A DNA stretch of 64,000 bases from a bacterium (GCA_030647415.1 JAUSKB010000011.1:21858-85857); one strand, 5' to 3'. Counted from the first letter of the stretch, positions 1 through 54,049 are shown. The notes: generated by a model from the sequence alone, not told the origin. Program-made: numbers and translations.

Positions 1-2554
1 CTAAAAACCCGTAGGATTGCGAACTCGCGCCGATATGATAATTCGCGCCGGGCGCCACATACATTTTGTAATATCCCTGGCTGTCCGTTTTCGCGTTTCC
101 GTTCCCCGGGCCTCCCTCCAGCCAGGCGTAGAGCGAAACACTCGCTAAACCGTTCCCCGCCGCGTCTTTCACATACCCCTCAATAAAATCAGACGGTGGC
201 GCGATAATTATGGTTGGCCCCTTGGGCGGATCAGTAATTTCATACGTGTCATCAACATCAACTTGCACCTCAACGGGGAAAGGCATATTTTCTCCGCCCA
301 CTCCTATTTTCCAGACCCCTTTTGAAACATTGAGCGTGAACGTACTGCTCGCCGTAACTTGCGCGCCGGTTCCTTTTCCGCCATTCGGTTGATAGGCAAA
401 CACCCATAATCTTCCGCGTTCTTCACTGCCAAATTGCCCGGATGGTTTTTGCACCGTGCCGACAATTCTATGTGTGGCCGAGGAAAACGTGAAATTTTTT
501 ACGGCGGTCAGCGTTGAAGACGATATGGTTGCTAACTGCGAATCAGGGTCGGTAAACGCGGTTGAAACCGTAATCCCGCCGGATGACGATGGCGGTATAT
601 GCGCCTCAATTCTATATGTTCCGTTTATCGGCACCCCAACGGCATAATTTGCGATACAATCGCCTCCGGTGGTAAAGAACGCCGGCTCAACTTGTTTAAA
701 GCCGGAATCCCCGGAATTAACGCTGTCGGGCATCGCGAATACAACAACTTGTTTATTTTGTCCGCCCGCCGCGCAGGACGCGCCCAACGTTACGGTGCCG
801 GAAATTTTCCGAGAAGTCGCCGGCATAAACAGATTTTGCGCCGCCGAAGTATTCACTTCTCTCCCCGCGGAATTCAAATGCGTTCCGGTTACATCATAGC
901 CCCAGGTATATCCCATTGAAGAAACACCCGTTATTGAAAATGTATCGGTGCCGGCATTGTACGTCATAAAGCCATCACCGACTGAATAGACCGTCATACC
1001 ACTCATTCCTCCGATTACAATACGAATGTTTGTGTTATCCCCGTCCGTCATCGGCGTTGACGTGCCCGACGAATAATACACCTTCGCGGTATACGCGCCC
1101 GCGATGTCGAAGAACGTGTTCGGTCCCATATCATTCATCACGCTTCCCGCAAGAACGTTGACGGGGCCTCCCTGCGCTCCCGCCGGCACTTTTACCACAA
1201 TTGAAGTATTGGACCAACTTCCGCCGGTATAATTCGCCTCAATGGGAGGAAGCGGTCCTGTTTGCTGGCTAAACCCGCCGGAAAAGAAAACCTTGTGATT
1301 GGCATCGCCAATAGTCCCCCCGCCCAGCGTACCGAAATTCGTTCCCGTAATCGTAACGGTTGAGCTTACCGCCCCCGATTGCGGACTTATGCTCGTAATA
1401 CTGGGAAGCGTAAGCGCCTGCACCGGCATACTTGAACTTGAGTAGGCGGTAAGTTTATTATTTGCCCCGCCCAGATCCGTAATCGTCGTGGAGGTGGGGA
1501 CAGAAAAGGAAGCGGTTCCAGACAATGCAAGTCCGCGAATGGTTATCTTCGTTCCGGAAAAATCTACAAACGGAAGGCCCATGCCTCCGCACGTAAGCGC
1601 CGCTCCGTTCACAATATAATTCGGCGTACAGTTCATCGCCTGCATCCCGTCAACATTTTCACTTAAGTTCAAAATAATTCTGTCGGTAAACGCCGTGGCG
1701 GAAGTTATAAACGGCGCCGCGTCCGCCGCAATCGTCACCATATTTGATACATTGCCCGCCTGGTCGTTTACTTGCACATCCACGCTTGTATAGGTGGTAG
1801 TATTAATCGCGAATGGCGCAAATTGACCGGATGGTCCCAACGTCGCTTGCCCTAACAGTGTCGTGCTGGCAGACACATACGCCTTGACTATGCTTCCATT
1901 CGTACCAATGGAAGCGCTCCCCATTGGCGCGAGTTGATTATTCCCAAGCAGAAAATATCCGGCCAAAATATTCGCCGGAGAAACCGCGTCTATGGAAATC
2001 ACCGCTGTTGACGTCGCGTTTATGGTCGGCGAAACACCGCTGGTGGCAACGCTGCTCGTCGCAACCGAAAGCACAAATTTATGCGTATCCGAATTTAATC
2101 CGCTTGCTGTTTTAAACGCGACGAGAAGCACGCTTGGCGTTGACGTTGAGAGCGCTACGGGAACTTTCAATGCAAGTGTCGTTGTAAATGGTCCTGCACC
2201 AGTCCATGAAGGAGTGGTGGACGCTTCCAAAAATCCGCTGGAAGCGCTGTATAAAGAAATACCCGAATTCGTGCTCGTTCCAAGCGCCGCAAGGTCGCTC
2301 GTTAAAAATCCGGTACTCGTCGCATCCGCGACAGAAATTGTAATCGCGGCAAGCGATTCACCTGCATTGCCGGTCAAAGAAATTTGTATGGCCGAGGTTG
2401 TCGCGCTTCCTCCCATTACCCACACTGGTCCTCCCAGTAAGTTTGTCGCGTTCCCAGAAACCGCAGCGCGAACCGTCACCAGATACGCGGAAGCGAAAGA
2501 AACGACTGCAACGACCGATACTACGAGGAACGCAATTTTATATAATTTTTTCAT
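1..2554 (-). CDS. Large secreted surface protein, partial (3' end runs off the window start). It is Ser/Thr/Gly-rich with IPT/TIG-like Ig repeats.
   Basis: On the minus strand an ATG at 2554-2552 opens MKKLYKIAFLVVSVVAVVSFASA (signal peptide), followed by repeats such as ITGTNFG. No in-frame stop occurs before position 1. The long + strand ORFs over it (1992..2627, 599..919) read as antisense shadows. The gene is absent from the ORF track because it is truncated. Confidence 0.55.
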   Translation of the reverse strand, partial: MKKLYKIAFLVVSVVAVVSFASAYLVTVRAAVSGNATNLLGGPVWVMGGSATTSAIQISLTGNAGESLAAITISVADATSTGFLTSDLAALGTSTNSGISLYSASSGFLEASTTPSWTGAGPFTTTLALKVPVALSTSTPSVLLVAFKTASGLNSDTHKFVLSVATSSVATSGVSPTINATSTAVISIDAVSPANILAGYFLLGNNQLAPMGSASIGTNGSIVKAYVSASTTLLGQATLGPSGQFAPFAINTTTYTSVDVQVNDQAGNVSNMVTIAADAAPFITSATAFTDRIILNLSENVDGMQAMNCTPNYIVNGAALTCGGMGLPFVDFSGTKITIRGLALSGTASFSVPTSTTITDLGGANNKLTAYSSSSMPVQALTLPSITSISPQSGAVSSTVTITGTNFGTLGGGTIGDANHKVFFSGGFSQQTGPLPPIEANYTGGSWSNTSIVVKVPAGAQGGPVNVLAGSVMNDMGPNTFFDIAGAYTAKVYYSSGTSTPMTDGDNTNIRIVIGGMSGMTVYSVGDGFMTYNAGTDTFSITGVSSMGYTWGYDVTGTHLNSAGREVNTSAAQNLFMPATSRKISGTVTLGASCAAGGQNKQVVVFAMPDSVNSGDSGFKQVEPAFFTTGGDCIANYAVGVPINGTYRIEAHIPPSSSGGITVSTAFTDPDSQLATISSSTLTAVKNFTFSSATHRIVGTVQKPSGQFGSEERGRLWVFAYQPNGGKGTGAQVTASSTFTLNVSKGVWKIGVGGENMPFPVEVQVDVDDTYEITDPPKGPTIIIAPPSDFIEGYVKDAAGNGLASVSLYAWLEGGPGNGNAKTDSQGYYKMYVAPGANYHIGASSQSYGFL

Positions 2555-2668
2555 CCCATTAGAAATAAACAAGCATAACCCAATTGACCAGAAAGGGCCT
2601 CGTATTCAAATGCTTTGTTGTTCATAAAAATTGATTGCATGTTTATTTCTAACGGGATGCATCCCTAC

Positions 2669-3823
2669 CTACAGAAGTCCATTTAGTTTCGCGCGGGTTT
2701 TCGGTCCCACAAAACCATAGCCGGAATCGCCCGGCTTCGCGATATTGTATTTCTCCTGGAAGGCCTTCACCGCGCTTTCAGTCAAGGCGCCGAAATATCC
2801 GGTCGCGGACACATTCAAGAGACCTTCGTTCTTCAGTATGTTCTGAAGCGCTGTCACGTCTGCTCCCTTCGAGCCTGCGCCTAATGGCCGGTTGAAAGCC
2901 GTGCGGGGAGCGGCGGCGGGAGACGATGGCGTCGTGGCGGGCGCCGGAGCAGGCACGGAGATGGGCGCGGACGGAATAATGTTTTCCGCAATCTTCGTCC
3001 GGGTAAGGGGTCCGAGATACCCGGTGGCCGGAAGTCCAATGCTCGCTTGGTATCGCGCCAGAGCCGCCCGGGTAGCATTCCCGAATAGATTTGTTTCGTG
3101 ACCTGGGGACCCCGCGCCGCCTGCCGCCACCGGAAAACCGTTGCTGTTTAAGAATGTTTGAAGTTGCCGCACATCTTCACCGTGCGAATTAAACTGTAAA
3201 TTGCGTGAAAAAGACGCTCCACCGCCCGCCGCGGTTGAAGGAGCCGCTCCTTGTTGCGTACCTGCTTTGTTTTGTAGGACCTGCAATTGAGCGAGCAACG
3301 CGCTCAATTGGTTTTGCGCCGAAGTGCTGGTACTGGCGCTGGTACTGGCGGGGGTGGCAACGGAAGTTGTGGTAGCGGCAGTCGGCGCTACATACGTACC
3401 GCCGCCTCCCCCGCCGCCGCTGACATTGACCGTAGCTGCTGATGAAACCGTGATGGTATAGGCAAAGCTTGCCACCGTCGAAGAAGCGCTATTTGCATAG
3501 CAGGCAATCGCTTTAATGGTCGCCGATGAGCCCACCGAGATTGCGCTGGAGTATGTCGTGCCGGTTGAAGGGCAGGCCGGCGCGCTGCCGTCGGTAGTGT
3601 ACCGGATGCTGGTCTCGCCGGTGGCGTCCAAGGTAACGCTCTGGGCAGAGGTGTAACTGCCCGCCGCGGGACTCGCGGTCGGCGCCGCCACTACCGTCCC
3701 CTCCACGGGACAATTCACGCCGGTGCACAGCGAACCGGTTATTTCAGACGCAAGAACAGGAAGCGCCGCAAGGAAACCAACCGCACATATGAGTAATGTT
3801 TTTGAGTTCACTATCCTATTCAT
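2669..3823 (-). CDS. Secreted peptidoglycan-binding protein. It has a signal peptide, a CHB_HEX_C/Fn3-like domain (IRYTTDGSAP), a coiled-coil (LSALLAQLQVLQ), and two PG_binding_1 domains.
   Basis: Two copies of the motif G.DV..LQ..L...G......G.FG..T..A...FQ (GEDVRQLQTFLNSNGF...ATRAALARYQ and GADVTALQNILKNEGL...TESAVKAFQ). The N-terminus is hydrophobic. Confidence 0.75.
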   Translation of the reverse strand: MNRIVNSKTLLICAVGFLAALPVLASEITGSLCTGVNCPVEGTVVAAPTASPAAGSYTSAQSVTLDATGETSIRYTTDGSAPACPSTGTTYSSAISVGSSATIKAIACYANSASSTVASFAYTITVSSAATVNVSGGGGGGGTYVAPTAATTTSVATPASTSASTSTSAQNQLSALLAQLQVLQNKAGTQQGAAPSTAAGGGASFSRNLQFNSHGEDVRQLQTFLNSNGFPVAAGGAGSPGHETNLFGNATRAALARYQASIGLPATGYLGPLTRTKIAENIIPSAPISVPAPAPATTPSSPAAAPRTAFNRPLGAGSKGADVTALQNILKNEGLLNVSATGYFGALTESAVKAFQEKYNIAKPGDSGYGFVGPKTRAKLNGLL

Positions 3824-9141: not shown

Positions 9142-9267
9142 ATTCACCCTGTTAGAGATTTGCATACAATTTTCTGCCATATTTAAGTATGACGGTACTG
9201 AAAGCAAAAATGTACACCGAGAAAGTAGCGTGCGTGCAAATCTCTAACAGGGTAAACTTCTAACAGG
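9142..9267. promoter_or_regulatory. Inverted-repeat motif pair, (A)TTCACCCTGTTAGAGATTTGCA and TGCAAATCTCTAACAGGGTAAAC, about 70 bp apart, with an extra half-site TTCTAACAGG. It sits upstream of the initiating sugar-transferase gene.
   Basis: The 18-nt arms are perfect reverse complements (9142-9164 and 9235-9257). The same motif family recurs at 52324-52586. Confidence 0.5.
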
Positions 9268-9276
9268 TTGTTCGAC

Positions 9277-9291
9277 TCTGAGAGTCTCAGA
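9277..9291. promoter_or_regulatory. Palindrome TCTGAGAgTCTCAGA of 15 bp, 29 bp upstream of the ATG at 9320. A possible operator.
   Basis: The 7-bp arms are perfect reverse complements around a single centre base. Confidence 0.3.
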
Positions 9292-9319
9292 CTCGAAGAG
9301 GTAAATCCTGAAACCACGC

Positions 9320-10669
9320 ATGTCTCTTCCGAAGAAATTCGCATTGTTCCTCGGCGACATCCTGCTTCTCTACGTCGCGCTTGCGGGCGCCCTCCTTATC
9401 CGCTACGGCGTGGGCGAGTTCGGCGCCTCGTTTGACACCCATGTGGGACCCTTCTCGAAACTCTTCCTCCTCTGGCTCATCGTCCTCTACATCGCTGACC
9501 TGTACCGCCCCGCCGCGCTCCGGAGCCGCGCGGCCATCTGGCGGTCGCTCATCCGCGTCGTTGCGATCGCCGTCGTCGCCTCCACCGTCGTCTTCTATTT
9601 GTTCGGGAGTGAGTTCTCGCTCACGCCAAAAACGAACCTCCTCATCTTCGGCGCCCTCTTCCTCGCCCTTGACGCGCTGTGGCGAACGACGGTGCGCTCC
9701 CGCTTCGCGGCTGGCGCAGCAAACCTCATCGTCGTCGGCGCCTCGCCCTTGACTGCGGCAACCATCGCGCACCTCCGGGAGAACCCGCAGACCGGCTACC
9801 GCGTGGTCGACTGGCTCGAACGGCCGGATGCCGCGGCGCTTCAAACCCTGCCCGCGCGGATTGCCGAGCACCGGGCGGGCATGGTTGTCTTCGAACGGCA
9901 GACGCTCCTGAACCCGGATGCGCTCGCCGCCGCCTACCGCCTCCTGCCCCGCGAGGTCGCGCTCTTGACCTCGACTGATATCTACGAGACGACCTTTGAG
10001 CGCGTGCCGCTCGCAGAAATTGACGAGACCTGGTTCATCCGGAACATCACCACCCGTCGTCGCTTCTACGACGCGCTGAAGCGCGCCCTCGACCTCGCGG
10101 CATCCGCCATCCTGCTCGTCGTTCTCTCGCCCCTCTTCCTCCTCATCGCCCTCATGGTCGGCGCGACCTCGCGGGGCCCGGTCATCTTCCGGCAATCACG
10201 AATTGGGAAGCTTGGCCGGCCGTTCACACTTTATAAGTTCCGCATCATGGTCAAAAACCACGACGGCTCGCCCGTCACACTCACGAACGACCCGCGGTTC
10301 ACCGGCATCGGAAAATTCCTCAACTTTACCCACCTAAACGAGCTCCCGCAGCTCTGGAACGTCCTCCGCGGCGACCTGTCCTTGACCGGCCCCCGGCCGG
10401 AGAGCGCCGAGCTCGTCGCCCAGTACGCATCCCTCCCCTACTACGACATCCGCCACGTGGTGAAGCCGGGCGTGACCGGCTGGGCGCAGATCAACTTCAA
10501 GCCGAGCACCTCGCGCGAGGAGGCCTTCGAGAAACTCTCCTACGACATCTACTACATCGCCCACCGCTCGCTCCTCCTCGACCTCCTCATCATTTTCCGA
10601 ACCGTGAAACACCTCGTTGCCCCCGTCCGCCAGAACGCGCCCGCCGACCTTGGCGGACAAACCCGCTAA
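9320..10669 (+). CDS. Polyprenyl-phosphate sugar phosphotransferase (WbaP/WcaJ/EpsL bacterial sugar transferase family), the initiating enzyme.
   Basis: An N-terminal TM region and a C-terminal catalytic domain with ...KFRIM...DELPQLWNVLRGDLSLTGPRPE...GWAQIN. ATG at 9320. Confidence 0.9.
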   Translation: MSLPKKFALFLGDILLLYVALAGALLIRYGVGEFGASFDTHVGPFSKLFLLWLIVLYIADLYRPAALRSRAAIWRSLIRVVAIAVVASTVVFYLFGSEFSLTPKTNLLIFGALFLALDALWRTTVRSRFAAGAANLIVVGASPLTAATIAHLRENPQTGYRVVDWLERPDAAALQTLPARIAEHRAGMVVFERQTLLNPDALAAAYRLLPREVALLTSTDIYETTFERVPLAEIDETWFIRNITTRRRFYDALKRALDLAASAILLVVLSPLFLLIALMVGATSRGPVIFRQSRIGKLGRPFTLYKFRIMVKNHDGSPVTLTNDPRFTGIGKFLNFTHLNELPQLWNVLRGDLSLTGPRPESAELVAQYASLPYYDIRHVVKPGVTGWAQINFKPSTSREEAFEKLSYDIYYIAHRSLLLDLLIIFRTVKHLVAPVRQNAPADLGGQTR

Positions 10670-18857: not shown

Positions 18858-18886
18858 TTGCATAACTTTATAAAGTTTGATACTAT
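18858..18886 (+). promoter_or_regulatory. Promoter TTGCAT-N17-TACTAT for the Fic gene, with a leaderless or short-leader start.
   Basis: The hexamers were read directly. The -10 element overlaps the ATG at 18885, and the next ATG is at 18900. Confidence 0.4.
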
Positions 18887-18899
18887 GGCGATATCACGC

Positions 18900-19847
18900 A
18901 TGAAGCAAGCCAAACCCATGACCACTCGTCAAAAACTGGAAATCATCCGAAAGATGCTGGGACTGACCCAGACCAAGCTAGCCCAAAGGTTTGGGGTGTC
19001 CTTCGCGGCCTTCAACAGCTGGTGGACCGGTAAATCGAACCCGCGGCCGAAGATGCAGGCCGCCATCAACGAGCTGTTCCTGGAGGTGACCGGGCAGAAG
19101 ATAATCCCCGCCGACCAGCTCACCGCCAAGAAGCAGGCGTTGTCGCGGAAATCGGGAGAGCATGAAAACGTCGTGGCCGAAATTCTGGACAATCCGGATG
19201 TCCGCGACCAGTTCATATTGAAACTCACCTACCACAGCAACCGCATCGAAGGCAGTACGCTCACCGAGCCGGACACAGCAGCGATCCTTTTTGACAATGT
19301 CGCCTTGCCGAACAAAAGCATCATCGAACAGCTTGAAGCAAAAAACCACCAGACTGCCCTGAACTATCTTTTCGACTCTGTGGCCACGAAGGGGAAAATC
19401 AACGGGGCGCTGGTTCTCAAACTCCACGGCATTCTCATGAACGGCATAAAGTCGGATGCCGGCGCGTACCGCAACCATGGCGTGCGAATCACCGGTGTCA
19501 ATCTGCCGACCGCAAATTATGCAAGCGTACCGAAGTTGATGGCCGAAGCGATGCGCAAGACTGCCAAAAAAACGAAAGATGTCGTCGCACTCGTCGCCGC
19601 GGTGCACGGCACGTTTGAGCAGATCCATCCATTCTCCGACGGCAACGGTCGCACGGGCCGCCTGCTTATGGACGCCATGTTGCTTCAGGCAAATTTCGCC
19701 CCGCCCATCATCCGCCAAGAGCAAAAACGGCTCTACTACATGTATCTCTACAAAGCCCAGACCAAGGAGGATTACAGCCGGCTGGAGGATTTCCTCTGCG
19801 ATGCAATCGTGGACGGATTCAAAATCCTCGAGCGAGCTGATTCGTAG
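18900..19847 (+). CDS. Fic/Doc-family protein (putative AMPylase) with an N-terminal XRE-type HTH.
   Basis: The Fic core is HPFSDGNGRTGR. A class-II inhibitory motif SxxxEG (SNRIEG) precedes the core. The HTH is LGLTQTKLAQRFGVSFAAFNSWWTG. The track start at 18858 is TTG, and the true start is probably the ATG at 18885 or 18900. Confidence 0.7.
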   Translation: MKQAKPMTTRQKLEIIRKMLGLTQTKLAQRFGVSFAAFNSWWTGKSNPRPKMQAAINELFLEVTGQKIIPADQLTAKKQALSRKSGEHENVVAEILDNPDVRDQFILKLTYHSNRIEGSTLTEPDTAAILFDNVALPNKSIIEQLEAKNHQTALNYLFDSVATKGKINGALVLKLHGILMNGIKSDAGAYRNHGVRITGVNLPTANYASVPKLMAEAMRKTAKKTKDVVALVAAVHGTFEQIHPFSDGNGRTGRLLMDAMLLQANFAPPIIRQEQKRLYYMYLYKAQTKEDYSRLEDFLCDAIVDGFKILERADS

Positions 19848-20011
19848 AAAAAGGTCTCGCGTGATCTCTGTCAGCGAACAACTTGAACTGTTCATGGCAC
19901 TGTTCTTGTGGTTGTTGGGATACCCCCTAACTTCCCCTAGCCCGCAACAGTAACTCCCCCTAGCCCCCTCTTATGAATAAGAGGGGATATGCATTTCCCT
20001 CCTCCCCTTAC

Positions 20012-20407
20012 CTATAAGGGGAGGTTGGGAGGGGTTAAGTCCGCGATTGCTTCGCGGACTTTTTCATACACACCCTCCAGATTCCGCAACACGTCATTGT
20101 TCCAAAATCGAATCACCATGATGTTTTGCTCCCGAAGGTATGCGGTCCGAACCGCGTCAGAATCGCTATCAATGTGCTGGCTCCCATCAACCTCTATCGC
20201 CAATCGAAACGCCGGACAGTAAAAATCCAGAATGTACGCACCGATGCCGTACTGCCTGAAAAACTTCACTCCGTTCATACGCTTGCCACGAAGCACACCC
20301 CACAGCTTCCGTTCCGCCTCAGTCTGCGACCTGCGCAACGACCTGCGCCGTTCCTTTAGGTCCTCACTGTTATAGAGGTGGGGCATAATTCCAGTAACCC
20401 CTCTCAT
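20012..20407 (-). CDS. DUF559 / Vsr-like endonuclease-domain protein.
   Basis: FYCPAFRLAIEVDGSQH...VIRFWNNDV matches the DUF559 signature. Family A palindromic repeats flank it on both sides. Confidence 0.7.
   Translation of the reverse strand: MRGVTGIMPHLYNSEDLKERRRSLRRSQTEAERKLWGVLRGKRMNGVKFFRQYGIGAYILDFYCPAFRLAIEVDGSQHIDSDSDAVRTAYLREQNIMVIRFWNNDVLRNLEGVYEKVREAIADLTPPNLPL
20039..20064 (+). terminator. Candidate terminator for the Fic transcript. It lies inside the 3' coding end of the convergent DUF559 gene.
   Basis: GTCCGCG-attgctt-CGCGGAC followed by TTTTT. Confidence 0.35.
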
Positions 20408-50439: not shown

Positions 50440-52323
50440 TCACTGCCATGTGCTTGCAATAGTAGCCGCCCACAGGCGCGACCAGTGGAGATCTCCTGCC
50501 TTGAAGCGGCGGAGGAGTTCCTTGCCATGGGCAGTCGCGAGCAACGGGCGAAACGCGTTATGCTCACCCACCACCGACGCGAGCCACTCGGCGAACGGGA
50601 AGGTGAATCCCATCTTCGGCCGCTGAAACACCTCCCGGGGCACGATATCCCTGACCGCCTCGACAAGGAGGGGCTTATTCACCCCGCCGCGCGGGAACTT
50701 GAGGTCTGCCGGGAGCGAGGCGAGGTACTCGACGAGCGGGTGGTCGAGGAAGGGCACCCGGACCTCGACCGAGTGGTGCATCGCCATGAAGTCGGTGTCT
50801 TTGAGGAGCTGGGATTCGAGATAGCTCTTCAATTCAAGATACGAGTGCGTGTCGGCTGGGTGAAGCGATTCGAGCACCTGGAGCTCGTGGCCTCCGGGAA
50901 CGAGCGATGCCGCGATATCCTCGACCACCGCCAACACCTCCGCTTCGTGCACGCCGAGAAGGGTCGCCGCTTCGCGCGGCGTGAAGAGCCCCCGGACCGT
51001 GAGATACTCGCCGATGAGGTCGCCCCGCATGAGGTACGATGCCTTAGGCGTCCGGCGGCCGAGCATCGCATGAGACGTCGCGAGCGACCGGAGCGCCGCG
51101 GGGAGGTGTGACACGAACCGGAGCGCTCTCGCCTTTCGGAAAGCAGGGTAGCCGAAGAATATCTCATCGCTCCCGAGGCCCGAGAGGACTGCCTTTAATC
51201 CTGCGGCCTTCGCTGCGCCGGCGATGAAGAAGGTGTTCACGCCGTCCACCGTCGGCTGGTCCATCGCTCCGAGCGCCTCGTCGAGCTCACCCATAAAATC
51301 GGCACGGCGGATGCGCGACTCCCGATGGTCGGTCTTCAGCCACCCCGCGACGCGGTCCTGGTAGAGCTTCTCGGAATATGCCGGCTCGTCAAAATTAACC
51401 GAAAGTGTGGTAACCGGTTTCGCGCGACCATGCGCCGCAAGTGCCGTAATCGCTGACGAATCAAGCCCGCCCGAAAGAAAGATGCCGAGCGGCGCGTCGG
51501 AGACGAGGTGGCTTCCGACCGCATCCGAGAGCAGCCGCCGCACCTCATGGGTCGCTTCGGCGAACGAGACGTCCCGTTTCCTCGTGAATGCCTCGAGCGG
51601 GTCGTAGTACCGAACGGTACGGATGGTGCCATCCACTCGCCGCTCCAGGTACGACCCCGACGGCACCGCAGAGACAGCGCGGAGCGTCGTCCAAGGCGAA
51701 GGCACCGACCCGGTGAGGAGAAACCCAATGAGCGCACGGGGGTCCCGTTCCGCCGGCACGAGACCGCTTTCGGCGAGCGCGCCGACGGTCGATGCGAACA
51801 CCACCTGATTGGGCGTTGCCGCGTAGTAGAGGGGTTTGATGCCATACCGGTCCCGAACGAGGTAGAGCATCTGATTTCGAGAATCCCACAGCGCAAATGC
51901 AAACATGCCACGGAGCTTCGAGAATGAAGCGACTCCTTCCCGCGCGAAGAGCGTGAGAATCACCTCCGTGTCGGTTTCCGTGTTGAATCGCTCACCGCGA
52001 GCCACGAGCTCCGCGCGAAGTTCGCGAAAATTGTATATCTCGCCGTTAAAGGTGATAGAAAGAATGCCCCCGGGAATCGAACGTTCCATGGGCTGATGGC
52101 CGGCGGAAGAGAGGTCGATGATGGAAAGCCGACGGTGCCCCAGCACCACTTCGCCTGTCCTGAGCGAAGCCGAAGGACCGCCGCCATTCGCAAGTGGATA
52201 GCTCGCAATCCCCTCGTCATCGGGTCCGCGCCGGACCTGCCGCGCGTTCATCGCCCGAACCGCGCGCTCAATCAATGCGCGGTCGCCCGCCCGAGTCGCT
52301 AGTATGCCGCTGATGCCGCACAT
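50440..52323 (-). CDS. asnB: Asparagine synthase (glutamine-hydrolysing) family amidotransferase.
   Basis: N-terminal MCGI (nucleophile Cys2), and SGGLDSS (PP-loop). Confidence 0.9.
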   Translation of the reverse strand: MCGISGILATRAGDRALIERAVRAMNARQVRRGPDDEGIASYPLANGGGPSASLRTGEVVLGHRRLSIIDLSSAGHQPMERSIPGGILSITFNGEIYNFRELRAELVARGERFNTETDTEVILTLFAREGVASFSKLRGMFAFALWDSRNQMLYLVRDRYGIKPLYYAATPNQVVFASTVGALAESGLVPAERDPRALIGFLLTGSVPSPWTTLRAVSAVPSGSYLERRVDGTIRTVRYYDPLEAFTRKRDVSFAEATHEVRRLLSDAVGSHLVSDAPLGIFLSGGLDSSAITALAAHGRAKPVTTLSVNFDEPAYSEKLYQDRVAGWLKTDHRESRIRRADFMGELDEALGAMDQPTVDGVNTFFIAGAAKAAGLKAVLSGLGSDEIFFGYPAFRKARALRFVSHLPAALRSLATSHAMLGRRTPKASYLMRGDLIGEYLTVRGLFTPREAATLLGVHEAEVLAVVEDIAASLVPGGHELQVLESLHPADTHSYLELKSYLESQLLKDTDFMAMHHSVEVRVPFLDHPLVEYLASLPADLKFPRGGVNKPLLVEAVRDIVPREVFQRPKMGFTFPFAEWLASVVGEHNAFRPLLATAHGKELLRRFKAGDLHWSRLWAATIASTWQ

Positions 52324-52586
52324 TTACCCTGTTAGAATTTTGCAGACATACTCGACTGATGAAAACAGATGTTTGTGTAGCAGGTCAGTGTCCAAAAATT
52401 TGAGTGTGTGCAAAATTCTAACAGGGTGAACCGCATTAGAGTTTTACACATAGACAGTTTCATAAAGATACGTCTTCTAAACCACAAACAATGTTTCATT
52501 CTTTTTCGAGTGTTTGTAAAACTCTAACAGGATAAACCACCGTTGAGTTTTGTACATCCCAGCGACATCTCTAACAGGGTGAATCC
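52324..52586. promoter_or_regulatory. Cluster of the same inverted and direct repeat motif seen at 9142-9267. It lies upstream of asnB.
   Basis: TTACCCTGTTAGAATTTTGCA (52324-44, reverse complement), TGCAAAATTCTAACAGGGTGAACC (52409-32), TGTTTGTAAAACTCTAACAGGATAAACC (52511-38), GACATCTCTAACAGGGTGAATCC (52564-86), and the reverse-complement partner TTAGAGTTTTACACA (52435-50). Confidence 0.5.
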
Positions 52587-53900
52587 CTACTGCCTTGGCG
52601 TCCCCGACGCCGATGGAGACGGGGACGTGTAATGAAACAGTGTGTAGAGTTTGGTAAACGGAATAAATTGTACGGTTGTGTCGTTAATTTTCATTTTACC
52701 CTCATCGCCAAGATGAACAACCAACGCCTTTTGGGGGGCGTATTTCCTGATAAAACTTCTCATGGAGCGCTCAACTGAAGGCGTAGTAATATTTTTATAT
52801 TTCACCTCAATCGGAATGATTTCGCCATCTAATTCGGCGATAATATCAACCTCCGCGCCATCCTTCGATCTCCAAAAACGAGTATCCCCTCCGCTTGATT
52901 GCGTACCGATATGCCTCAATTCATTCGCGATGAAGTTTTGAAATAGAAATCCTCCATCGTTGCTTGAAAGAGTTCTCCCAAAAATACCGCGCGCATAATT
53001 CCGTAACCCGATATCATTGAAATAAATGAGTGGTGATTTAGTGATCTCTTTTCGCGTGTTGCGAAAATACGGATACGCGCGGCGAATCACAAATGTTTTT
53101 TCCGCATACGCGATATAGTTTTTTATCGTGGGAAGAGATATGCCCAGCGTGGAAGAAAGCTCCGTATAATGAACCATATTCCCCGTCTGTTCCGCAAATA
53201 TCTTAATCAATCCTCGAAACGCGTCTATCCGCTCCACATGAAGCAGGTATGAAATATCTCGCTCGATATAACTTTCAAATATTTCGTTTATCACTCGTTC
53301 CTTCTCCCGCGATTCGTCTTCGGTAATAACACGGGGATATCCTCCAAATTGCATATATTCCTGCAGGAATTTTTCGGTGTGTGTTTTTTCAATTTTGAAA
53401 AATTCATCCAGGCGCCCCTCGTACCGATTTTCTGTTTTGAAATTCACAAATTCGCCGAACGAAACCGGGGTCATTTCAAATACGCGCTTTCTCCCCAGAA
53501 GCGATTCGTGTATTTTTTCTTTTAATTCCAAGCTCCCTGATCCTGAAACGATAAATTTATATGGAAGACCCATATCGTACAACCCCTTCAAAAACAATCC
53601 TGCATTTTCTTTTCTTTGAATCTCATCAATAAATACGTACCCGGTATGTTTCCCGAACTCAAGCATGAGTTTTTTTACGAGTGATTCTTGAGAGTCAAAA
53701 AATATTCTGTCGGATTCTACATCAAGATTGAGCCAAACCGTCCGTTCTCCGCGGGAGCGCAGCATATCATCAAGCATACGCATTAGTGTCGTCTTCCCAA
53801 CTTGACGGGCGCCAACAATAAGCGAAATTTCCTTTGCGGAAAGATGCTTTTTCAATAATTCAAATATAGTACGCTTGATAACCGAGTTTTTCAAAACCAT
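52587..53900 (-). CDS. AAA+ superfamily ATPase (AAA_14 with a DUF4143 C-terminal domain). Low-GC gene.
   Basis: Walker A GARQVGKTTL and Walker B VFIDEIQ. AT-rich compared with the cluster. Confidence 0.8.
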   Translation of the reverse strand: MVLKNSVIKRTIFELLKKHLSAKEISLIVGARQVGKTTLMRMLDDMLRSRGERTVWLNLDVESDRIFFDSQESLVKKLMLEFGKHTGYVFIDEIQRKENAGLFLKGLYDMGLPYKFIVSGSGSLELKEKIHESLLGRKRVFEMTPVSFGEFVNFKTENRYEGRLDEFFKIEKTHTEKFLQEYMQFGGYPRVITEDESREKERVINEIFESYIERDISYLLHVERIDAFRGLIKIFAEQTGNMVHYTELSSTLGISLPTIKNYIAYAEKTFVIRRAYPYFRNTRKEITKSPLIYFNDIGLRNYARGIFGRTLSSNDGGFLFQNFIANELRHIGTQSSGGDTRFWRSKDGAEVDIIAELDGEIIPIEVKYKNITTPSVERSMRSFIRKYAPQKALVVHLGDEGKMKINDTTVQFIPFTKLYTLFHYTSPSPSASGTPRQ

Positions 53901-53997
53901 CTCTCAATTTTAGCCCGAGATTTCTACAAGTCAACATCCATTGGTTTTAGCCCATGACTGCGACAATTTAAACATATTCGTATCATTTATACCTATT

Positions 53998-54020
53998 AAT
54001 CGTATCATATTGATACGATT
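53998..54020. promoter_or_regulatory. Palindrome AATCGTATCAtatTGATACGATT of 23 bp. It sits upstream of the ATPase gene and downstream of 54050..54682.
   Basis: The 10-bp arms are perfect. A direct repeat CGTATCAT lies nearby. Confidence 0.35.
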
Positions 54021-54049
54021 ACAAGGACATGCATTCGACGCAATCCTTC

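Follow-up and report, generated by a model that had tools for sequence, protein, structure and literature searches.

The interval between asnB and a neighbouring ATPase gene holds two full modules and remnants of a family of small elements. It spans positions 52324-52586 of the window, by which we mean the whole 64,000-nt stretch of bacterial DNA analysed (GCA_030647415.1 JAUSKB010000011.1:21858-85857). The unit is non-coding and ends in terminal inverted repeats, as seen in 19 modules, and copies are polymorphic in their insertion and nest within one another. The units are fixed in size, their two arms vary in concert, some have paralogs over the whole unit, copies cluster in nests and tandem arrays, and orthologous sites differ by presence, absence and turnover. 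Our favoured reading, which we put at a probability of roughly 0.55, is that the modules constitute a Correia-like family of miniature inverted-repeat elements that supply promoters and start codons.

The 8-mer CTAACAGG has seven exact copies in the 64-kb window against 0.65 expected, a count reached in 0 of 100 shuffles. All copies are confined to 9148-9267 (locus 1) and 52328-52578 (locus 2). Within 52324-52586 it lies on the plus strand at 52418, 52524 and 52571 and on the minus strand at 52328; exact counts and a repeat finder thus bear out the initial annotation, which had described three direct copies with inverted partners here. A 23-nt box, TGYAAAWYTCTAACAGGRTRAA, has the 8-mer as its core. 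Counted at up to two mismatches, the 22-23 nt form TGCAAAWYTCTAACAGGGTRAA has five copies in the window where 0 are expected. As a control we used 1.34 Mb of unrelated bacterial loci from a genome scan with an asnB alignment, whose listed matches came mostly from unrelated phyla and hardly ever from Patescibacteria; there the 8-mer occurs at chance (0.57 per 64 kb) and the extended box is absent. The box is not self-palindromic and has no dyad symmetry, and its conserved block spans -10 to +19, TG occupying -15/-14 and the bases A-11 and T-7 being invariant. The repeat finder returned inverted arms of 22-26 nt at both main loci, 92-95% complementary and 56-70 nt apart, and at locus 2 also a 53-nt direct repeat (52399-52451 and 52505-52557). 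A third, diverged box pair near 2549-2662, not flagged in the initial annotation, was found by a position weight matrix scan. Locus 2 is not an assembly artefact, since a Logan assembly made independently from the same sample matches it at 100% identity and in the same orientation.

A module consists of an arm, a spacer of 63-71 nt and a second arm, about 113 bp in all and so far below 500 bp, as in prokaryotic MITEs, with no open reading frame. The modules of the window, with the gene at the head of locus 2, are:

50440-52323, minus strand: asnB, heading a long minus-strand run of glycan genes
52323-52321, minus strand: ATG of asnB, at positions 18-20 of the beta-arm box of module A
52322-52344, minus strand: gene-proximal (beta) arm of module A, TGCAAAATTCTAACAGGGTAAAT, AAAATT variant
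52345-52408: spacer of module A, 64 nt, GC 0.41, unrelated to other spacers
52409-52431, plus strand: distal (alpha) arm of module A, TGCAAAATTCTAACAGGGTGAAC, AAAATT variant
52426-52448, minus strand: proximal arm of module B, a degenerate box, TGTAAAACTCTAATGCGGTTCAC, AAAACT variant
52449-52514: spacer of module B, 66 nt, GC 0.32
52515-52537, plus strand: distal (alpha) arm of module B, TGTAAAACTCTAACAGGATAAAC, AAAACT variant
52530-52559, minus strand: decayed box remnant, TGTACAAAACTCAACGGTGG, tail-to-tail with the alpha arm of module B
52565-52586, plus strand: half box, ACATCTCTAACAGGGTGAATCC, intact at box positions 4-19 only and adjoining the ATPase stop codon
9142-9164, minus strand: alpha arm of locus 1, TGCAAATCTCTAACAGGGTGAAT
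9165-9234: spacer of locus 1, 70 nt, sharing about 80% identity with its counterpart in the nusA module on contig L110
9235-9257, plus strand: beta arm of locus 1, TGCAAATCTCTAACAGGGTAAAC, facing the sugar-transferase operon at 9320
9258-9267, plus strand: partial second box of locus 1, TTCTAACAGG
9268-9300, plus strand: 33-nt palindrome following the partial box, exactly at the box position 13/14 boundary
2549-2662: diverged module (locus 3), arms 75 nt apart, spacer 68 nt
2549-2571, minus strand: arm of locus 3, containing the start codon (ATG at 2554) for a TIG-domain secreted protein of >851 aa
2640-2662, plus strand: arm of locus 3, adjoining the stop of the PG_binding_1 gene at 2669-3823

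Read from asnB towards the ATPase gene, locus 2 is thus made up of module A, module B, the decayed box and the half box. The proximal arm of module B overlaps the alpha arm of module A tail-to-tail and forms a local hairpin, which the initial annotation took as an inverted partner. A simple tandem duplication is ruled out here, since the spacers of modules A and B are unrelated. Both arms of locus 3 carry the variant TGTTTATTTCTAAYGGGATG. The modules have a GC content of 0.36-0.39, compared with 0.545 for the window, and about six of them occur in the roughly 70 kb of host genome examined. The partial boxes at 9258-9267 and 52569-52586 each begin near box position 4, and the homology with the related locus L021 likewise starts at box position 4 (52569), so that breakpoints recur where the variable WY dinucleotide meets the TCTAACAGG core.

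A metagenome scan with the 22-nt pattern yielded 22 contigs with GC from 0.33 to 0.62. The box family is one found in a subset of Paceibacteria/Parcubacteria-type Patescibacteria. DNA pattern scans gave 0 matches in GTDB representative genomes and in IMG/VR viral contigs, and a plasmid database gave none. The literature that could be searched describes neither small repeat elements nor promoter signals for Patescibacteria, and links neither MITEs nor the motif to them.

The box is closely tied to gene starts. It lies 0-20 nt before the start codons of unrelated genes, namely PyrI, PheS, NrdR, a CsoR-like repressor, NusA, SSB, RecO, a sugar transferase, GatA and asnB. For PyrI, NrdR, SSB, GatA, RecO, NusA, PheS and asnB the start codon falls within the box or 4-20 nt beyond it, and in several genes ATG or GTG occupies box positions 14-16 or 18-20. 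Genes linked to a box are without a Shine-Dalgarno sequence, which the other genes of the window have, and such a role for ACAGG was rejected because its spacing of 0-3 nt is too short. About half of the boxes adjoin a co-oriented gene start. The remainder adjoin the stop codon of the upstream gene, with the distal arm starting 4-25 nt past it, so that one module typically fills the whole intergenic gap. Outward-facing pairs are 70-78 nt apart from box to box, with spacers of 63-71 nt (n = 18 pairs) that are mostly unrelated to one another, and convergent and tandem arrangements are found too. A search for tRNA genes gave a sole informative case, L006, where one arm faces a tRNA-Met gene and the other faces pheS.

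The two arms of a module vary together. At the variable box positions 3 and 4, partner arms agree at 0.94, against 0.38 and 0.52 expected (permutation p<5e-5), and within the window the true pairing of arms is the best of 24 possible pairings. Rare variants are private to both arms of a single module at locus 3, in L015, in L022 and in the second module of L110. L110, another contig of the same sequencing run that we count as the window genome, carries a module upstream of nusA that is homologous to window locus 1 over its whole length (z=12.4), and L012 matches both of these at z of about 6 each. In L022 a complete element is nested in the spacer of another; its excision restores an outer spacer of 65-71 nt, and the inner element is flanked by a 6-nt direct repeat.

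Orthologous sites differ in whether they carry a module. The nusA module is present in L110 and L015 and absent in L111-L115 (NusA identity 75-83%), which have ordinary TTGACA-type promoters instead, and the asnB module is present in the window and in L021 and absent in L105-L107. L021 is a relative whose flanks are 94.7% identical to the window and which has the ATPase and a TPR-like gene in common with it. It carries one module at asnB, compared with 2.5 in the window, its spacer is unrelated, and homology between the two breaks inside the outermost box, at 52569. Between L110 and L015, where the flanks are >93% identical, the arms differ in concert and the interior has been replaced. Four of the 19 modules have flanking repeats that resemble target-site duplications (TSDs), where the null gives 0.94 +/- 0.89, and the other 15 have none; two of the repeats are of 6 nt at position 13 and two of 8-9 nt at position 19/20. 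The right-hand copy in L009 coincides with codons 2-4 of the gene whose ATG forms the last 3 nt of the element.

Other small features accompany these loci. A palindrome of 33-34 nt sits at the box position 13/14 boundary at nusA of L110 (1785-1818) and is missing from the ortholog in L015. Its form, T[TC]GTTCGACTCTGA(T)GAGTCTCAGACTCGAAGAG, recurs at 9268-9300 of the window and in L012, where it carries an extra 60-nt insertion, and the Logan contig L002 begins at the palindrome centre (9278). The palindrome resembles a further, very small insertion element with the edge of the box as its target. L110 has another module, much diverged, next to that of nusA at 1593-1702, its boxes 70 nt apart and both bearing the private variant GTCTCTAACGGGGT, with the minus-strand arm preceding a gene of 527 aa. 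In L111-L115 a conserved leader hairpin, GACCGCTCC...GAGCGGC, precedes nusA by about 60-100 nt and follows TTGACA-N17-TAccAT promoters; it may be a nusA leader element.

The inner flanks of partner arms differ, with 0/18 agreement at position -4. Read inward, the alpha arm gives TTYACC-N16-TAcAAT, and the beta arm has CGCAC(G/A) at the equivalent place. One arm has a good inward -10 in 8 of 19 modules (background 2.6%), and both arms do in 0/19. Of about 14 modules that can be interpreted, at least 11 have the promoter so predicted aimed at the gene start next to the beta arm, all four window modules among them; the exceptions are the L015 nusA module, module 2 of L012 and the inner element of L022. 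At locus 1 a neutral scanner found a sole sigma70-like site, on the plus strand, TTCACC (9143-9148)-N16-TACAAT (9165-9170), which has the 16-18 nt hexamer spacing of sigma70. The minus strand of locus 2 has TTCACC-N16-CACACT in the alpha arm of module A, a weak sigma70-like promoter, and TTTATC-N16-AACACT in that of module B. Both are directed at asnB, and both are weak matches (CACACT, AACACT; 7/12).

We propose a model in which the module is directional and its alpha end serves as a sigma70-type promoter, with the -35 TTYACC in the box and the -10 TAcAAT in the inner flank after N16. Transcription would pass through the spacer and out of the beta end, the final bases of which would often be the start codon of the next gene (...CAGGATG, ...CAGGGTAAATG). 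Were transcripts to read through from upstream, the arms would pair into a stem of about 20 bp that buries the start codon, likely an RNase III or insulator structure as in the Correia elements (CREEs). At 52324-52586 the tandem modules and remnants would all be aimed at asnB, and the modules of locus 2 would give the glycan operon a promoter of its own after insertion of the ATPase gene had split the upstream operon.

Several features sit less easily with an element family. TSDs are missing at most copies, and their length and boundary are inconsistent where they are present. Spacers are mostly unrelated, unlike those of typical young MITE families. Neither a transposase nor an autonomous copy with matching ends turned up in the window or any fetched locus, nor did box pairs 0.4-5 kb apart around a transposase. 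The 23-nt end is conserved in genomes of 33-62% GC and the start codons of many unrelated genes hold fixed positions within it, which favours a functional signal recognised by the host over a purely selfish repeat. The promoter matches of locus 2 itself are weak. Finally, the geometry is suited equally well by reading the box outward as an extended -10, TRTG-n-AAAWYT, from which transcription would start at CAGG.

Such a reading would make the module a fixed, non-mobile pair of back-to-back extended -10 promoters that fire outward into leaderless or short-leader mRNAs. The G of CAGG would be the first transcribed base, a factor specific to the lineage may bind, and gene conversion would keep the arms alike. 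The conserved -10 to +19 block with its TG and invariant A-11 and T-7 fits well, as do the positions of ATG or GTG in the boxes of housekeeping genes, the spacing of 70-78 nt held tightly across genomes of 33-62% GC, the unrelated spacers, and L006, whose arms both face co-oriented genes. We consider this possibility unlikely all the same, as about half of the boxes would then aim into the 3' end of the upstream gene, and neither convergent tail-to-tail boxes nor nesting make sense for promoters. The paralogy of whole modules covers the spacer, the modules are strictly asymmetric, and related Patescibacteria that lack the box use TTGACA-N17-TAnnnT promoters at the same genes.

It is tempting to see in the same asymmetry an invertible switch. 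The boxes would be recombination sites at which a trans-acting recombinase flips the 65-nt segment carrying the -10, toggling the direction of transcription, with crossover at the variable WY dinucleotide and genome-wide phase variation of the surface in ultra-small, host-dependent CPR bacteria as the result. There is exactly one promoter-like -10 between the inverted repeats and the -35 lies in the repeat, partner arms are most alike around positions 3 and 4, which a crossover core would predict, breakpoints recur near box position 4, and the window targets are all envelope genes. At nusA the alpha/beta polarity is reversed between L110 and L015 although the flanks are >93% collinear, and the L015 interior matches the family only when inverted (z 2.3-3.7). 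The narrow range of lengths would suit helical phasing at a minimal loop size, and Correia elements are reported to invert (PMC10969869). A simple inversion between L110 and L015 is nevertheless ruled out by interiors too diverged for a flip, and the Logan assembly has locus 2 in the same orientation. Essential targets such as nusA, pheS, ssb and gatA are unlikely to be phase-varied, the 64-kb window encodes no site-specific recombinase, the box is without dyad symmetry, and nesting and paralogy are left unexplained. Both the switch itself and the crossover and phase variation proposed for it are, on balance, quite improbable.

We give still less credence to the possibility that the modules act primarily as RNA elements, whose arms pair in read-through transcripts to cause termination, RNase III cleavage or concealment of the start codon. 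The predicted fold does contain a stem of about 20 bp that encloses the downstream start codon (-37 to -47 kcal/mol, z -3.8 to -6.8), the distal arm starts 4-25 nt after the upstream stop, and the covariation of the arms is real. Stability of this kind, however, follows trivially from any inverted repeat, and the primary sequence is kept far beyond what pairing needs. In L006 the module lies between divergent genes, with no transcript spanning both arms, and at locus 2 the G/A difference at position 16 leaves C-A mismatches on the sense strand. There is no U-tract and no Rfam family: Rfam 15 at gathering thresholds gave no match in the window and 20 loci, and a permissive search of loci 1 and 2 gave only sub-threshold miRNA-like or generic hairpins. 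The stem is plausible as a side effect on read-through transcripts and would not be the main cause of the sequence conservation.

The surroundings of locus 2 bear on a further proposal, made in the initial annotation, that the motif cluster is an att-like integration or recombination junction bounding the glycan island. The genes it named on either side, asnB and a low-GC AAA+ ATPase with DUF4143, were correctly called. The ATPase side has the following features:

52587-53900, minus strand: ATPase ORF (AAA_14 and DUF4143), GC 0.42
52599-52627: GC-rich hairpin with 13-nt arms, inside the 3' extension of the ORF, host-side sequence
52631-53934, minus strand: acquired ATPase DNA with its own predicted promoter, outside the repeat family
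53934-53929 (TTGACT), N16, 53912-53907 (TAAAAT), N6, ATG at 53900, minus strand: putative ATPase promoter

Protein matches place the window in the Patescibacteria, near Wolfebacteria, Liptonbacteria and Paceibacterota. In three relatives among the Patescibacteria the genes run Wzy_C+TPR, Wzy_C, TPR-like and asnB, in the same order as in the window, with 12-68 nt before asnB and no ATPase, and the box is absent from the 14-22 kb examined in each of them. Homologs of the ATPase, at about 60% identity, are scattered over many phyla. A copy in L108 is 82% identical, stands in a different context, has no boxes and matches the window at 52631-53934 only, so the acquired DNA ends 44 nt short of the box cluster. 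The ATPase gene is evidently, from these comparisons, a separate horizontal insertion. Its promoter is near consensus with leaderless geometry, and homology to the L108 copy begins exactly at the -35. The ORF extends about 15 codons beyond the end of its homologs (window 52587-52640), and as this extension crosses the host-side hairpin, the protein's C-terminal tail probably arose as an artefact of the junction. A perfect 25-nt palindrome, TAATCGTATCAATATGATACGATTA (53997-54021), separates the ATPase promoter from the stop of the TPR-like gene and could be an operator or a terminator.

Elsewhere in the window, the glycan cluster includes at 18858-20407 two embedded genes, one for Fic/DOC and one for DUF559 (Vsr-like endonuclease), and GC swings of 0.44-0.67 across that cluster suggest a mosaic origin. 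Locus 1 is flanked by a giant Big_5 surface protein on one side and a Bac_transf sugar-transferase operon on the other.

What holds of the junction proposal is that the ATPase gene is foreign, that small insertions were repeated here and that L021 homology ends in the outer box. An att-like boundary is barely credible, even with the glycan genes bracketed by the two main loci, because the relatives without the motif run uninterrupted across this point, the very observation that the initial annotation had named as refuting it, the Wzy_C, TPR and PG_binding genes carry the syntenic block onward, the ATPase DNA stops short of the boxes and its other copy is boxless, the window encodes no integrase, and the motif recurs at a third window locus and before housekeeping genes (nusA in the same genome, and nusA, pheS, ssb, gatA, recO, nrdR and pyrI in other contigs). 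CTAACAGG is the core of the ends of a gene-start repeat element and hence not a marker of an island end. An attC identity was rejected as well, since GTTAGA on the left and TCTAAC on the right reverse the attC core-site order (RYYYAAC ... GTTRRRY).

For the element family that we favour, the nearest described system would be the Correia element of Neisseria, by a likeness of function and not of homology. CREE/NEMIS repeats are non-coding, about 105-155 bp long, with inverted-repeat ends of about 26 bp, a directional core and two distinguishable ends (PMC2649163, PMC10969869). They lie mostly 5' of genes, carry sigma70 promoters at their ends that are part element and part flank, and in one case the element ends on the A of an ATG (PMC2649163, PMC10969869). 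Transcribed copies form RNase III hairpins, insertion varies among strains, inversion has been reported, and related MITEs cluster and insert into one another (PMC2649163, PMC10969869). Our modules resemble them in their size of about 113 bp, 23-nt ends, alpha and beta ends, predicted end promoter, start codons within the ends and differences between strains. Unlike CREEs, the modules have no sequence similarity to the Correia repeat, belong to a different host phylum, and have no TA target duplication and no evident IHF site. Their interiors are mostly unrelated, where CREE cores are conserved, and their ends are conserved across genomes of very different GC.

Other kinds of element invite comparison. 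REPINs and BIMEs, which are mobilised by RAYTs, likewise pair inverted repeats of about 25 nt across a fixed distance of about 70 nt, and have a less conserved spacer, co-evolving arms, clusters and, as at most modules, no target-site duplication. A REP, however, is a palindrome with GTAG, is species-specific and usually lies at gene 3' ends, and the box differs in all of these respects: it overlaps start codons, is common to diverse genomes and is followed by CTAC after only some distal arms. The window contains no RAYT or Y1 transposase. In fimS and the capsular polysaccharide invertons of Bacteroides, as here, inverted repeats flank a promoter segment before genes for surface structures, and one recombinase can serve several homologous switches per genome. 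The module differs from invertons in a segment of only about 65 nt, in essential genes among its targets, in uniform orientation between two assemblies at locus 2 and in having no recombinase in the window. Putative mobile promoters, near-identical promoter-bearing intergenic segments that precede unrelated genes in one genome, are defined by sequence repetition only, whereas the modules have a fixed inverted-repeat architecture.

Several further identities were considered for the box and set aside. Sigma54, ECF-type and T7-like single-block promoters, compared by eye, have spacings that do not fit, and the lack of dyad symmetry rules out DnaA box, CIRCE, dif and hix sites. Fixed-length unique spacers are suggestive of a CRISPR-like array, but the repeats overlap start codons and most arrays would hold one spacer only. 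The boxes are too rare, and too strictly intergenic, for a DNA uptake sequence.

Patescibacteria are regarded as extremely streamlined. If our reading is true, such streamlined genomes still recruit selfish DNA as ready-made expression cassettes, and operons would gain new promoters after a foreign gene has landed, asnB being an example. The element would likewise explain part of the assembly breaks, and of the apparent breakpoints in synteny, in these MAGs. The box could be used to mark one clade by a short sequence, and the module offers the few genetic systems of the group a candidate portable promoter. If the modules do invert, they would provide a means of cell-surface phase variation in episymbiotic bacteria, one that extends to surface glycans and giant surface proteins.
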